Source: an uncultured bacterium (lineage in GTDB: Bacteria; Verrucomicrobiota; Lentisphaeria; Victivallales; UBA1829). From it: a stretch of DNA of 64,000 nucleotides. Of the stretch, positions 4,180-13,625 are shown piece after piece. Location: contig CADCMR010000001.1 of NCBI GenBank assembly GCA_902802585.1, positions 3,223 through 67,222 on the forward strand, given 5' to 3'. The position numbers and the translations under genes were made by a program. Positions within the stretch are counted from its first letter, which is position 1, and each line of letters opens with the position of its first letter. The notes under the pieces were generated by a model. It did no database searches and was not told where the DNA came from. It worked only from the letters and a program-made list of their open reading frames with translations.

Positions 4180-4887
4180 TTATGCTTCCGGATCGTACAG
4201 GAAAAATGAACAATTGTCGCATTGCACCAGATTCCCGTTTTTCGCTTCCATCACGGTCTGCGGAGAATTCTTCATGTTGCAGTTCGAACAGCTCCCGTTG
4301 CGGATGGTTCCAACCGGACTGCCCTTGCCCGAGGCAAGCAGCCTGCGGTAGGGCTCCAGATAGATCGGCACGACGTTTTTCGCGAGTTCGGCGGACTTTT
4401 CTTCCTTTTCCGCGATTTCCTTCGCGATCGCTTCCTTGAGGGAATCCAGCTCGCGGACTTCCGCCTGGACTGTCCGGCCCGTTGCCTTGTAGGTGCGCTC
4501 CGCCTTTGCCAGCAGCTTGTCGGCAGCCTCCTGTTCGTCCATGAGTTCGATCTCGCGCGTTTCGGAGTCGGAGATATTCTTCTTCGCGGTTTCGATTTCC
4601 GCGAGGATGGCGTTGTATTCGTTGATTTTCTTGACCGAGGTGGACTTGATCATCAGCGCCTGAAGGTTCTCCTGCGCCGCCTTCGTGGCGGCCGCCTGCT
4701 GCTTGACCGCCTGCTCGACTTTCAGCTTGTTCTGCTTCGCCTTTTCCAGCCCTTTGCGCACGACATCGAACTCCGCGACGAGCGCGGCGCGTTCGCGCGG
4801 GATGGACATGAGCCGTGTCTTGAGTTCGCGGATGCGCAGGTCTTCCGCCTGCAGGATCAGCAGATCCTTGATCGCCTGTTTCACCAT
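4180..4887 (-). CDS. Coiled-coil protein with C4 zinc ribbon (DUF164/CT398-like)
   Basis: Long coiled coil followed by C-terminal CSNC...CDNC. Confidence 0.85.
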   Translation of the reverse strand: MVKQAIKDLLILQAEDLRIRELKTRLMSIPRERAALVAEFDVVRKGLEKAKQNKLKVEQAVKQQAAATKAAQENLQALMIKSTSVKKINEYNAILAEIETAKKNISDSETREIELMDEQEAADKLLAKAERTYKATGRTVQAEVRELDSLKEAIAKEIAEKEEKSAELAKNVVPIYLEPYRRLLASGKGSPVGTIRNGSCSNCNMKNSPQTVMEAKNGNLVQCDNCSFFLYDPEA

Positions 4888-4917
4888 AGTTCAGTCTCCT
4901 GTTTGTGTTTTTTCACT

Positions 4918-4945
4918 AATATAGCCGTCCTTTTCCCAACATCAA
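4918..4945 (-). promoter_or_regulatory. Sigma70-type promoter
   Basis: TTGATG-16nt-TATATT upstream of the zinc-ribbon gene. Confidence 0.5.
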
Positions 4946-4986
4946 GCGGAAAAGAAAAAGTTTTGACGATTTTTCTTTTGCTCCAT

Positions 4987-9220: not shown

Positions 9221-9378
9221 AGGAGTGCGGATTCTGGAATGATGCCCCGGTGCGATATCGAAGACCGGGACATTCTGCTATATACTTTACGCTTTTATTG
9301 TGAAAAAATCAAGTCGCTTTCAGGAAAAAGCGGAAAAAACGCGCCCCGTCGGGAAACGGAGCGCGGGATGGATGCGGC

Positions 9379-11892
9379 TTATTTCAGGATCGCGTCGATC
9401 TCCGCGAGTTCCTCCGCTGTGAACGTGGAATTCCTGTCCAGACCGTCCAGCACGTCGTTGATCTGGCTGATGCGGCTGGCGCCGACGAGCGCCGACGCGA
9501 CGGTGTCCTGACGCAGCACCCAGGCGGTCGTCATGGCGGCCAGGCTCTGTCCGCGTTTCCGCGCAAGTTCGTTCAGCTTTCTGATCATCTCCAGCCTCTC
9601 CGGCGTGAGCGCTTCCGGCTTCAGGAACACTCTGCGCGTCATGCGGGAGTCTTCCGGGATGCCGTCCAGATAGCGGTTCGTGAGCAGACCCTGCGCCATC
9701 GGCGAGAAGATGATGCCGCCGACGCCGAATTCCTTCATCACGTCGAACGTGCCGTCCTTTTCGCATCTGCGGTCGAACATGTTGTAGCGCACCTGATGGA
9801 GCACGACCGGCGTCTTGAGTTCGCGCAGGATGGTGAACGCCTCGCGGGCGCGTTCAGGCGAGTAGTTCGAGATGCCGACGTAGAGGGCGCGTCCGGACCG
9901 CACGATCTGGTCGAGCGCGAGCATGGATTCCTCGACGGGGGTATTCGGGTCCATGCGGTGGTGGTAGAAGATGTCGACGTAGTCGAGGCCTAGGCGCTTC
10001 AGGCTCTGGTCGCAGCTGGCGATCAGGTATTTGCGGCTGCCGTGATCGCCGTAGGGGCCGGGCCACATGGTGTAGCCTGCCTTGGTGGAGATGACCAGCT
10101 CATCGCGCAGTTTGCCGGTGAAGTCGGCCTTCAGGATCTTTCCGAACGCCTCTTCCGCGCTGCCTGCCGGCGGTCCGTAGTTGTTCGCCAGGTCGAAGTG
10201 CGTGATGCCGTGGTCGAACGCGTCCCAGACCATGGAGTGCGCGTTGTCGAAATTGTCTTTTGCGCCGAAATTATGCCAGAGACCGAGCGAGACCTTCGGC
10301 AGCTGGAGACCGGTGTTGCCGCAGTGGCGGAATTCCATGTCGGTATACCGTTCTGCCGCAGGGGTGTAGTCGATCAGCGGATCCGGCTTCCTGCCCTGGC
10401 GTACAACGAAAATGGCGAATGCCACTGCGGTTAAAAAACCGATCACGACGGAAACGTTGTACGGCAGACCGCCGTTGCGGGTGAAGAAGAAAAGACCGTC
10501 GGGCTGCCCGATTTTCCTGGACGTCCAGCAGATGAACGTGACGACAACGGCGGTCATGAACATGCCGGGGATCAGGGTGATCAGCGAACCGATTTTCTTT
10601 CCCCTGCGGAGCAGCCACACGGTGCCCGCCATCAGCGTGGTGGCGGCGAGCACCTGGTTGCCCCAGGCGAAGTAGTTCCAGAGCTTGTTGAACGACTTGG
10701 CGTCGGTGTTGGACCAGTAGAGCAGGGCGGCGACGAGGACGATCAGCGGCAGGCAGGTCAGGAAACGCGGCAGAAAACTCTGCTGCGGGATATGGAGCAT
10801 TTCCGAAAGGCTCAGGCGCGTGCTGCGGAGCGCGGTGTCGCCGCTGGTCACGGCGAGGATCACGACCGCCAGCACGGTGACCGTGCCCATCCAGGTGCCG
10901 AGGAAATGCGTGGTGATCTCGCAGAGCACCACCGGACCGCTCTTGCTCATGAATTCCGGCTTCAGGTTGTAGATGGCGAGACCGCCGACCGCCCAGATCA
11001 TGGCGATGATGCCTTCCAGGATCATCATGCCGTAGAAGTCACTCCTCGCCTCGCGTTCGGACTTCATCGTGCGGGCGATGATCGGCGACTGCGTGGCGTG
11101 GAACCCGGAGATGATGCCGCACGCGATGGTCACGAAGAGCAGGGGGAAGACCGGCGAGGTGTCGGGGTTGAACTTGTGGAGCTGGAACGCCTTGCTTTCC
11201 TGCATGATGCTCGGTTCCTTGAAGCCGGCGACGAGGAGCGCGACGAAAATGGCGAGGGTGCCGACCAGGAGCATGAGGCCGAAGAGCGGATAGACCTTGC
11301 CGATGATCTTGTCGACCGGGAACATCGTGGCGATGACGTAGTAGCAGAAAATGGCGACGACAGCCACCCAGAAGAAGTTTTCGGGCTGGATTGAGGCGGC
11401 GGCGTCCGGATCGGCCGGCGTGGTGAAATCCTGCAGCGTCGTGTTGATGAGGTTGGCGGGGACGTTGATGAAGACGGCGACCACGAGCAGGAGCAGGATC
11501 ACCATGAACCACTGGAAGAAGACGTTGTATCCCATGCCGAGGTTCTTATGCACGATCTTCGGCAGGTTCGCGCCCTTGTCGCGGATCGACATCATGCCCG
11601 CCGCCATGTCGTGCACCGCGCCCATGAGGACGCATCCGACCGGAATGATCGCCAGGGCGATGACGCCGAACTTGATACCGAGGATCACGCCGATCACCGG
11701 GCCGATGCCGGCGATGTTCAGCAGCTGGATGAGCATGTTCTTCCAGCGCGGGAGCGTCACATAGTCCGTGCCGTCGGCGAGCTTCACCGCGGGCGTCTCG
11801 CGGTCGTCCGGACCGAAAATCTTTTCCACCAGTTTTCCGTACAGGAAGTACCCGAGTACCAGGAACGCGATGCCGCCGAGAAAGAGTAACAT
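9379..11892 (-). CDS. Fusion: CstA-family transporter (N-terminal ~500 aa) + YghZ/MgrA-like aldo-keto reductase (C-terminal ~330 aa)
   Basis: CstA motifs (IAGIGPVIG, GAVHD, FVTIACGIISGFHATQSP, EGIIA, TSGDTALRS, LWNYFAWGNQ) in frame with AKR motifs (LPKVSLGLWHN, HFDLANNYG, ISTKAG, FYHHR, YVGISNY, SPMAQGLLT); no stop between them. Confidence 0.9.
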   Translation of the reverse strand: MLLFLGGIAFLVLGYFLYGKLVEKIFGPDDRETPAVKLADGTDYVTLPRWKNMLIQLLNIAGIGPVIGVILGIKFGVIALAIIPVGCVLMGAVHDMAAGMMSIRDKGANLPKIVHKNLGMGYNVFFQWFMVILLLLVVAVFINVPANLINTTLQDFTTPADPDAAASIQPENFFWVAVVAIFCYYVIATMFPVDKIIGKVYPLFGLMLLVGTLAIFVALLVAGFKEPSIMQESKAFQLHKFNPDTSPVFPLLFVTIACGIISGFHATQSPIIARTMKSEREARSDFYGMMILEGIIAMIWAVGGLAIYNLKPEFMSKSGPVVLCEITTHFLGTWMGTVTVLAVVILAVTSGDTALRSTRLSLSEMLHIPQQSFLPRFLTCLPLIVLVAALLYWSNTDAKSFNKLWNYFAWGNQVLAATTLMAGTVWLLRRGKKIGSLITLIPGMFMTAVVVTFICWTSRKIGQPDGLFFFTRNGGLPYNVSVVIGFLTAVAFAIFVVRQGRKPDPLIDYTPAAERYTDMEFRHCGNTGLQLPKVSLGLWHNFGAKDNFDNAHSMVWDAFDHGITHFDLANNYGPPAGSAEEAFGKILKADFTGKLRDELVISTKAGYTMWPGPYGDHGSRKYLIASCDQSLKRLGLDYVDIFYHHRMDPNTPVEESMLALDQIVRSGRALYVGISNYSPERAREAFTILRELKTPVVLHQVRYNMFDRRCEKDGTFDVMKEFGVGGIIFSPMAQGLLTNRYLDGIPEDSRMTRRVFLKPEALTPERLEMIRKLNELARKRGQSLAAMTTAWVLRQDTVASALVGASRISQINDVLDGLDRNSTFTAEELAEIDAILK

Positions 11893-11934
11893 GACAATGC
11901 CTCATGGGATTGAAACCGGCGGGAACCGTGTTAT

Positions 11935-12098
11935 GGGCACCTCTATTCATTGGTTTTCGGTGGCTTTTCGCATCCGGGCAAAGTCCAATTGGTAAGATTT
12001 TCGGTGGTTACCTTCAGGTAGCCACGCTCAAATCTTCCTGCATTGTCTTGTTTGCCCAGCTGCTGAAAATCCATCCGCCTGAATGAATAGAGATACCC
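11935..12098. ncRNA. 164-nt rod-like inverted-repeat element in the cstA leader (structured RNA or MITE candidate)
   Basis: Nested complementary pairs: 11935-11951/12082-12098 (15/17), 11976-11982/12051-12057, 11994-12000/12030-12036, 12004-12012/12017-12025. The structure is seen directly; its identity is unknown. Confidence 0.45.
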
Positions 12099-12164
12099 TT
12101 CGGGGCGGGGGCGCCGGCCGCGGAAAATGCCGCGAATGTTGTTTTATTGCGTTTGTAATATGAT

Positions 12165-12192
12165 ATTATAGCATGATTCTTGCGCATTTCAA
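12165..12192 (-). promoter_or_regulatory. Sigma70-type promoter for the cstA-AKR leader
   Basis: TTGAAA-16nt-TATAAT with extended -10 TG. Confidence 0.7.
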
Positions 12193-12278: not shown

Positions 12279-13625
12279 TCAGGACACGAGCACGGCGTCC
12301 TGGAGATAGATTTCGCGGGAGAACGGCTCGAATTTGAGAAGTTCGGCCTCGAAGACGACCGTTTTTCCCTTCATTGCGTCCAGAGTGCCGCGGAGAGCGG
12401 GCGGGAACGCCGCGACCGCCTTGATCTGGACCGGTGCGGATCCCTGTGAAATCCTGCAGATCAGGAACGTCGCCTTGATGCCTTTCTGCGAGCCGAACAC
12501 GAAGTCCATGCTGAACGGCATGCTCGTCTGGAGTTCGCCGCTCCAGCGCACGCGGCGACCTTTCATCGCGTCGAACGCGGCGCGTTCCTCCATGCCGGGG
12601 AATGCTTTGGCGAACAGCGCGGAACAGACGGATTCGGCGGTCAGGCTGTCATCGGCGGCGGGTCTCCGGGGCTCCTTGGGCTGCCGCGCCGGGGCGGGAG
12701 CGCCTTTTTGCGCGGATGAAACGGAACTCCGCACGACGCCGGATTTCAGCGTGTCGGACGCGCCTGTGCGCTTCACCTCGGGCGAGATGCGGATGACGGC
12801 CGTGCGCTGGGATTCCATCGAGGAACCCGACGGGAGCGGGATCCTGGATGTTTTCGATGCGGGAGATTTTTCAACCTGGATCGGTGCGTAGCGTTTGGGC
12901 GCGTCTGGCTCCTCTTCCTGAGCGGCGGCGGTGAAATCCTCCGGTACGGCGAGCAGGTCTTTTTTCTGCGCGGTCTGCAGGTCCGGCATCGGCTCGGACG
13001 AGGGGGATTCCAGCGCATTCGCGATCGCCGCCATGCGGCTGATGACCGTGACGTCCGGGGCCGAGGCGCGGAGCCGCACGGATACGCCCTCGTTGTTGAA
13101 CATCCCGGCAGGGAAGAGGCGGATGAGATTGAGCACGGCGGAACGGTTCGACGGTGTGTCCAGGAACCGGTCGAACGCCTCCTCGGATTCCGCGGAGCAG
13201 TAAAAATCAGGTTCCTGTGAGGAGAAAAACATTTTCGATGGATAGATCGGGTGTCCGTCCAGGATGCGCGCGGCGATCGATTCGAGGTCGCGGACCACGC
13301 AGACGTTGAATCCCGGCGCGTTTCGGAACGCCACGAAATAGCGGACGTAGTTGCGTCCGAACCGTTTGATTGTGACCGCATGACCGGAGAACCTGCCGGT
13401 GATGGCGGCGTCCTTCCCGTCCGGGGCGGCGCCGGGCTCGTATGTGCAGGCGAGCTGTTCCGCCGCCTCGCGCCACTGTTCCTCCAGGTCGGCCTGTGCC
13501 GCGGGGGCGTCTTCTCCGTCGGACCCGTCGCGGATCGCCTTGTTTGCCTTGCGGAAGCTCGCGACGACGGATTTCCAGATGAAAATGCCGATCAGGATGG
13601 CGACGATTTTGAACAGGAAAGGCAT
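12279..13625 (-). CDS. Hypothetical membrane-anchored protein with low-complexity linker and possible C-terminal OB-like domain
   Basis: N-terminal TM helix, Pro/Ala/Ser-rich middle, C-terminal KGRRVRWSGEL...VVFEAEL beta-rich region. Confidence 0.6.
   Translation of the reverse strand: MPFLFKIVAILIGIFIWKSVVASFRKANKAIRDGSDGEDAPAAQADLEEQWREAAEQLACTYEPGAAPDGKDAAITGRFSGHAVTIKRFGRNYVRYFVAFRNAPGFNVCVVRDLESIAARILDGHPIYPSKMFFSSQEPDFYCSAESEEAFDRFLDTPSNRSAVLNLIRLFPAGMFNNEGVSVRLRASAPDVTVISRMAAIANALESPSSEPMPDLQTAQKKDLLAVPEDFTAAAQEEEPDAPKRYAPIQVEKSPASKTSRIPLPSGSSMESQRTAVIRISPEVKRTGASDTLKSGVVRSSVSSAQKGAPAPARQPKEPRRPAADDSLTAESVCSALFAKAFPGMEERAAFDAMKGRRVRWSGELQTSMPFSMDFVFGSQKGIKATFLICRISQGSAPVQIKAVAAFPPALRGTLDAMKGKTVVFEAELLKFEPFSREIYLQDAVLVS

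Follow-up and report, generated by a model that had tools for sequence, protein, structure and literature searches.

A CstA-family carrier fused to an aldo-keto reductase

The 64-kb window analyzed here (64,000 nucleotides of contig CADCMR010000001.1, from an uncultured bacterium of the Victivallales) contains a gene in which a membrane carrier of the CstA family is joined in frame to an aldo-keto reductase (AKR) of the YghZ (AKR14) type (Table 1). As the initial annotation had it, this is a single open reading frame (ORF), 837 amino acids (aa) in length, in which both Pfam domains are found. An eight-residue linker connects the last membrane helix with residue 3 of the native reductase; the stretch across the domain junction reads …QGRKPDPLIDYTPAAER…, and the junction text given initially, ...FVVRQGRKPDPLID|YTPAAERYTDMEFRHCG..., corresponds to residues 498-525 of the fusion. 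A PDB sequence search aligns residues 509-836 with residues 3-328 of entry 5t79, so that the AKR part starts close to residue 3 of a native free-standing enzyme, in agreement with the earlier description of a reductase that has lost its own methionine and kept its native N-terminus. The internal Met519 (position 10338; context gcagaacggtataccgacATG) had been described as being without a ribosome-binding site, and there is indeed no Shine-Dalgarno-like motif upstream of it; the true ATG start of the fusion gene has a GAGG 7 nt upstream. No paralogues of the fusion were found within the window.

The full-length AlphaFold2 model has confident domains (mean predicted local distance difference test score, pLDDT, of 84.8) and a predicted template modeling score (pTM) of 0.62, with pLDDT values below 50 at linker residues 506-508. 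Because of this low-confidence linker and the pTM of 0.62, the relative orientation of the two domains is undefined in the model.

Table 1. Features of the fusion gene and its flanks (coordinates are those of the window).
Feature	Coordinates	Strand	Basis
CstA-AKR fusion coding sequence, stop codon included	9379..11892	-	single ORF, 837 aa, ATG start
CstA-family carrier domain, residues 1-500	10393..11892	-	Pfam CstA, AlphaFold2 model, Foldseek
Linker, residues 501-508 (RKPDPLID)	10369..10392	-	length invariant; junctions of split relatives compared
YghZ-type (AKR14) aldo-keto reductase domain, residues 509-837	9382..10368	-	PDB sequence search, template modeling scores, NCBIfam
Catalytic tetrad codon span	9958..10194	-	codons read directly in sequence
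Tetrad codon D567	10194..10192	-	
Tetrad codon Y572	10179..10177	-	
Tetrad codon K604	10083..10081	-	
Tetrad codon H645	9960..9958	-	
Sigma-70-type promoter-like site TTGAAA-16 nt-TATAAT, extended TG	12165..12192	-	11/12 consensus matches
5' leader, conserved ~100-nt core, two predicted GC-rich hairpins	11893..12164	-	13-locus alignment
Palindromic insertion resembling a miniature inverted-repeat transposable element (MITE), ~164 nt, in loop of second leader hairpin	11935..12098	-	alignment, folding
Ribosome-binding site GAGG, 7 nt before ATG	11900..11903	-	read directly; conserved across aligned loci
Intrinsic-terminator-like hairpin, 11 pairs (8 G-C), then T run	9340..9365	-	14 nt past stop

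Conservation of the fusion

The fusion is not peculiar to this genome and occurs in over 20 protein clusters. A search of 5.8 billion proteins recovered 16 fused clusters of 837-840 aa (86-93% identity) and four of ~1010 aa, all of which have both Pfam domains and derive from ENA, NCBI, JGI and Logan assemblies. In a survey of loci in GTDB, with one genome per species, the CstA match ends where the AKR match starts, in frame, in nine rumen Victivallales/Lentisphaeria species representatives (L007-L015); the L007 sequence stops 19 residues into the AKR, and uninterrupted ORFs of 837-1011 aa were read in L006 and L008-L015. The junction, QG(R/K/Q)KPDPLIDY, is of constant length in 22/22 fused sequences, and the codon alignment contains synonymous changes within it. 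Among the fused genes the ratio of nonsynonymous to synonymous substitution rates (dN/dS) is 0.24 for the CstA part and 0.20 for the AKR part, at a synonymous divergence (dS) of ~0.3, values that show purifying selection on each half.

Such a gene could also come from an error in sequencing or assembly, or from a stop codon lost in one genome as in a pseudogene, and the reading has some footing in that close relatives carry two separate genes and that two database entries, P0035 and P0029, are frameshifted and end in junk, respectively. The same in-frame junction is nonetheless present in the independent ENA, NCBI, JGI and Logan assemblies and in the nine species representatives, the junction is a deletion rather than a point change, and both halves are under selection, so that an artefact has a negligible probability. 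In support of the initial reading, the fusion is genuine and inherited, neither a lost stop nor an assembly error. The initial annotation had also held that close relatives with a stop codon and separate genes would speak against it; such relatives do exist, in the sister clade, but since the fused genes form a single clade and have stayed fused, these relatives reveal how the fusion originated and leave it standing. Of the two defective records, P0035 changes to another reading frame after about residue 368, and P0029 is apparently chimeric, with a divergent N-terminal part and an unrelated tail, …GRASCRERVYSGV.

The fusion does have a narrow distribution. A HMMER search over 1.84 billion representatives at 50% identity gave just one, P0015, that spans residues 1-837 among the best 150 representatives, the other top matches being carrier-only or AKR-only; a fusion on a very distant carrier, such as one of the Escherichia coli type, could escape a search read to this depth. 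No AKR gene was found near cstA in any of 69 loci whose carriers are 56-68% identical (from Kiritimatiellia, other Victivallales and others; flanks of up to 5 kb, sometimes shorter), nor beside cstA in the Kiritimatiellia locus L005. Several candidates for additional fusions were rejected. In the AKR P0123 the N-terminal segment is duplicated, probably through misassembly; the AKRs P0166, P0245, P0219, P0221 and P0172 are extended upstream by sequence that is apparently spurious; and in P0153 and P0199 the CstA part is joined to unrelated regions. P0153 (1033 aa) has a long second hydrophobic, transporter-like region C-terminal to its CstA part, and P0199 (761 aa) is a CstA-family protein with a Lys-rich C-terminal addition; these additions suggest that C-terminal fusion may recur in the CstA family.

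No description of the CstA-AKR architecture was found in the literature searched, and the earlier statement that no described example was known therefore stands, although the sequences themselves exist in NCBI nr. There the fusion is named only 'aldo/keto reductase' (MBR2963411.1, MBR4717760.1 and MBR4254286.1), and public annotation of these 837-aa proteins thus overlooks a carrier domain of 500 residues. What appears new is the CstA-AKR architecture; both domain families, and carrier-enzyme fusion in general, are known.

Origin from two adjacent genes

The closest carrier-only relatives, P0022 and P0032 (77-82% identity), have the same synteny, and are followed by an AKR gene of 324-334 aa. 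In the split relatives L001-L004 and L016 a separate AKR gene comes directly after cstA, and the order seen in the window (FolD, an unknown protein of ~450 aa, cstA) is common to the split loci. The cstA stop codon overlaps a GTG in frame with the AKR (GTGA) in L001 and L016, and the AKR read from this GTG begins VSSSAYSPSPARY… in L001 and VSFNAYTPSPTRY… in L016; in L003 the AKR GTG is 5 nt past the cstA TAA. Overlap or close spacing of this kind would fit coupled translation of the two genes.

The split carriers have a C-terminal hydrophilic tail of 18-30 residues. The fused genes have neither this tail nor the stop codon and AKR start codon, and the shared QGRKP is followed by DPLID-Y. As read from these sequences, the junction arose by in-frame deletion and not by point mutation; a simple change of the stop codon could not fuse the GTGA-overlap loci, because the two frames differ. 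In neighbor-joining trees of both domains the fused genes form a single clade, in which the 1011-aa form branches first and to which three split loci are the sister group, and monophyly in both trees indicates one fusion event. Within the fused clade, L008 pairs with L009 in the carrier tree and with L012/L013 in the AKR tree, a conflict that suggests recombination between strains or chimeric metagenome bins.

An ancestor in a rumen Victivallales lineage thus had a two-gene operon, with a short CstA-family carrier followed by a YghZ-type AKR, and a single in-frame deletion took out the carrier tail, the carrier stop codon and the reductase start codon to leave a tether of eight residues; the fused gene then diversified into nine or more species-level lineages. 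An origin as overlapping genes of one operon lends weight to the functional link between the two halves that was envisaged initially.

The carrier domain

Pfam CstA (PF02554) matches the N-terminal half of the protein in three stretches, with 181.1 bits (cutoff 27), and CstA-only homologues at 56-83% identity number in the hundreds. It is a short form of the family, with ~500 aa and ~13 helices, and the initial description of a complete CstA-type membrane domain is correct as to the family but does not extend to the 701-aa, 18-helix E. coli type. The E. coli CstA equivalog model (NCBIfam NF011590) gives 67.6 bits against a cutoff of 1188, and judged by this model the carrier and E. coli CstA are not orthologues. 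Since it lies far from the pyruvate/H+ symporter equivalog, a substrate is not transferable from E. coli, and the earlier attribution of pyruvate or peptide transport by kinship to CstA and BtsT is unsafe.

Modeled alone with AlphaFold2, the carrier has a pLDDT of 90.8 and a pTM of 0.91. It has a LeuT/APC fold, with a Foldseek probability of 1.0 and template modeling scores of 0.5-0.57 to SGLT2, KimA, LeuT, Nramp and ApcT; the PDB search gave no sequence match to a solved CstA structure, and the fold matches are to distant LeuT-fold carriers only. Two helices of the model, at residues 49-75 and 248-273, are broken, and we infer that they are the equivalents of LeuT transmembrane helices 1 and 6. 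With this assignment there would be one extra N-terminal helix plus twelve, placing the N-terminus outside and the C-terminus inside, and the predicted loops, with 14 Lys/Arg inside and 7 outside, are in modest agreement with this topology. A cytoplasmic carrier C-terminus would put the reductase in the cytoplasm, about eight residues past the last helix.

A predicted periplasmic loop (residues ~151-173; nt ~11374..11442) has variable Ala/Glu/Lys-rich, repeat-like insertions in relatives. These range from tens of residues up to ~170 aa, and both the fused forms of 1010 aa and several of the split ones have them; carriers with such insertions include P0017-P0020, P0025-P0027, P0030 and P0032.

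The reductase domain

The AKR half matches Pfam Aldo_ket_red (PF00248) over residues 534-836 with 241.2 bits against a cutoff of 24. Its best PDB sequence matches are 3erp and 5t79 (E value 3e-127) and YghZ/AKR14A1 (3n6q; 1e-118), with Kv-beta2 at ~1e-47, and the structural comparison has the same order: template modeling scores of 0.92-0.96 to AKR14A1, STM3165 and Cbei_3974 and ~0.90 to Kv-beta2, with identities in the structural alignment of 52-58% to the AKR14A1/STM3165-type enzymes and ~33% to Kv-beta2. The Kv-beta (AKR6) model TIGR01293 gives 175 bits against a cutoff of 365.4. These scores place the AKR half far nearer to YghZ/AKR14 than to Kv-beta and refine the 'Kv-beta-like' label first applied to it. 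The NCBIfam model for L-glyceraldehyde-3-phosphate reductase (NF007388) gives 429.7 bits, just below its cutoff of 448, with 426.5 for a split-gene relative and 435.8 for a free Victivallis vadensis enzyme; proteins of Anaerolineae and Terrimonas pass it with 466 and 482 bits. The nearest relatives of the AKR outside the clade are free-standing V. vadensis enzymes at 67% identity.

The Asp-Tyr-Lys-His tetrad had been reported as intact, and an alignment of 57 AKR sequences has D567, Y572, K604 and H645 without exception; the cofactor-site residues examined are also invariant or nearly so in it. With its active site and cofactor site unchanged from those of free AKR14s, the domain is most likely still a working carbonyl reductase. 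Comparison of the linked AKRs with 37 free-standing AKR14s identifies one clade-specific substitution, L732M, and the CstA part has 12, eight of which are in its cytoplasmic half. A co-evolved carrier-AKR interface was considered and rejected, as these 12 CstA substitutions and the one in the AKR are not compelling.

The kinship with Kv-beta bears on the proposal that the reductase is an NADPH/NADP+ sensor controlling transport, which would make the protein a covalent bacterial counterpart of Kv-alpha/Kv-beta. AKR14 enzymes are among the closest bacterial relatives of Kv-beta (AKR6), as the template modeling score and identity given above reflect; the very short tether of fixed length keeps the AKR against the carrier; in KimA, a LeuT-fold carrier that ranks among the top fold matches, a regulatory nucleotide is bound by a cytoplasmic domain; and cofactor-driven allostery is possible in oligomeric AKRs (PMC10923870). 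Against these points, the domain scores below the cutoff of the Kv-beta family model, and a single clade-specific substitution implies that no docking surface has evolved. The split sister clade keeps the same AKR behind a disordered carrier tail of 20-30 residues and with no tether, and in the fusion the linker is modeled as disordered with the domain orientation undefined. The retained tetrad does not discriminate, because Kv-beta also keeps most of it. The redox gate suggested initially thus gains no support from the Kv-beta model, from the substitutions or from the undefined domain position, and we regard it as unlikely; that the AKR is mainly a sensor gating a LeuT-fold carrier, and not a metabolic enzyme, is a shade less likely again. 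If it were true, Kv-alpha/Kv-beta coupling would have its first counterpart in a prokaryote, with a covalent link, and the redox-sensing role of this AKR branch would seem to be older than its recruitment to eukaryotic channels.

Expression signals and neighboring genes

The promoter-like site upstream of the fusion gene lies in a block, CTTGAAA...ATGCTATAATAT, that is invariant in 13/13 aligned loci, fused and split. The core of the leader is nearly invariant across the same 13 loci despite the coding dS of ~0.3, and the second of its hairpins is followed by TTTC; the core could serve as an attenuator or operator. The leader has no Rfam match even at an E value of 10, and a riboswitch was rejected for lack of a matching Rfam family. 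Because the predicted hairpins are invariant, with almost no covariation, covariation in the leader is uninformative.

The MITE-like element ends in inverted repeats, GGGTATCTCTATTCATT / AATGAATAGAGGTGCCC, and its whole length folds into a single hairpin (-75.9 kcal/mol, z = -9.35); there is one copy of it in the window. It is found in the window, in L009 and in L016 (both at ~4790-4955) and not in the ten other loci; since its site is shared by two fused lineages and one split lineage, repeated gain or loss, or else recombination, is indicated.

Between FolD and cstA in every related locus there is a gene for a protein without a Pfam match, which in the window (12279..13625, minus strand) is 448 aa long and has counterparts of 455-482 aa elsewhere. 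The protein starts with a hydrophobic helix and is of low complexity in its middle region, and a terminator-like hairpin and the promoter stand between its gene and the fusion gene.

Function of the fusion protein

We favor the interpretation that the fusion couples transport to metabolism, with the carrier importing a compound that the tethered enzyme reduces at entry, and give this a probability of roughly one half. The carrier would import a small carbonyl or 2-oxo compound, for which a pyruvate-like substrate is a guess from the only characterized relatives, and the tethered AKR would reduce either this compound or a reactive aldehyde accompanying it at the point of entry. The reductase would be held under the inner face of the carrier, where NADPH is available, and the gain from fusion would be a fixed 1:1 stoichiometry and proximity, with no new chemistry. 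We infer from the genetic arrangement that both halves act on one process. One precedent is E. coli CstA with its small partner YbdD (PMC5847655). Another is described in PMC6458275 (citing Felce and Saier 2004), in which SulP carriers are juxtaposed to, and sometimes fused with, carbonic anhydrase, a pattern read there as the enzyme acting on the transported species. The corresponding pattern is found here: relatives have the two genes side by side in the same orientation, and in one monophyletic group they are fused.

Several observations weigh against this import-and-reduction interpretation. Both the cstA-AKR linkage and the fusion are confined to one clade and the linkage is young, so that the partnership is not a general property of the family. 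The carrier, as noted, is not an E. coli CstA orthologue, and AKRs are not known to reduce pyruvate itself. In AKRs generally the active site lies at one end of the barrel and the N-terminal hairpin closes the other; it is therefore unlikely that a tunnel leads directly from the carrier into the active site, and the fusion would offer proximity at most. There is no defined inter-domain contact in the model, and the lone L732M substitution gives no sign of a new surface on the AKR. Finally, free AKR14 entries crystallize with eight chains and a related AKR assembles as a D4 octamer (PMC9427786), either of which may not fit easily with a membrane-tethered form.

It is also possible, with a clearly smaller probability, that the fusion is uncoupled: two co-regulated but independent proteins welded together by a deletion that is harmless and at most ensures their co-expression. 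The split and fused states occur in sister clades whose domains are nearly identical and whose dN/dS is similar, the adjacency is itself young and clade-restricted, the AKR is essentially unchanged from its free-standing orthologues, and overlapping stop/start genes easily fuse by accident. The shared invariant promoter and leader and the overlapping stop and start codons predate the fusion, however, and point to selection for joint expression before it occurred. Moreover, through diversification into nine or more species-level lineages the fused form has never reverted and its linker length has not changed, and it would probably be costly to anchor a soluble multi-subunit enzyme to the membrane pointlessly.

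A stable fusion derived from overlapping co-transcribed genes is a natural 'Rosetta stone' linking a short CstA carrier and a YghZ-type reductase. Several substrates have been proposed for YghZ-type AKRs and none is established for the short CstA carriers, and with the fusion, a construct of one gene, it can be tested what compound is imported and reduced. Should the reductase control the carrier instead, the fusion would be a model in bacteria of the way in which AKRs of the Kv-beta type communicate with membrane proteins. The fusion is limited to one narrow lineage, and nothing so far indicates an unusual mechanism.

Comparison with known systems

The enzymes most similar to the reductase half, YghZ/AKR14A1 of E. 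coli, the STM3165-type enzyme of Salmonella (3erp and 5t79) and Cbei_3974 (6hg6), are soluble NADPH-dependent carbonyl reductases whose substrates include methylglyoxal, L-glyceraldehyde 3-phosphate and other carbonyls. They share with it the N-terminal Y-x-P-x3-R-Y segment, the tetrad and the cofactor residues, but are free in the cytoplasm, with eight chains per crystal entry, whereas here eight residues tether the enzyme to a membrane carrier. Kv-beta (AKR6) likewise places an NADPH-binding AKR fold under a membrane transport protein; its association with Kv1 is non-covalent and through the T1 domain, which is absent here, and its partner is a channel whereas the partner here is a LeuT-fold carrier.

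The K+ importer KimA, one of the top fold matches to the carrier half, likewise combines a LeuT-fold carrier with a nucleotide-binding domain in the cytoplasm at its C-terminal end. This domain binds cyclic di-AMP and is regulatory rather than an enzyme fold, and KimA resembles the carrier in fold only, at 12% identity. For SulP and carbonic anhydrase, as given in PMC6458275, the carrier gene adjoins the enzyme gene in some genomes and is fused with it in others, as seen here; the carrier and enzyme families are different, and the chemistry that links them (bicarbonate/CO2) is obvious there and not here.

E. coli CstA and BtsT (TC 2.A.114), both specific pyruvate/H+ symporters, share Pfam PF02554 with the carrier half and, like it, are secondary carriers with a co-encoded partner protein. 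E. coli CstA, with 701 aa and 18 predicted helices as compared with ~500 aa and ~13 here, is a narrow-specificity pyruvate/H+ symporter (PMC7730263), and CstA-dependent pyruvate uptake requires the small protein YbdD (PMC5847655). The place of that small partner is taken in the Victivallales fusion by a 329-aa enzyme, covalently attached.

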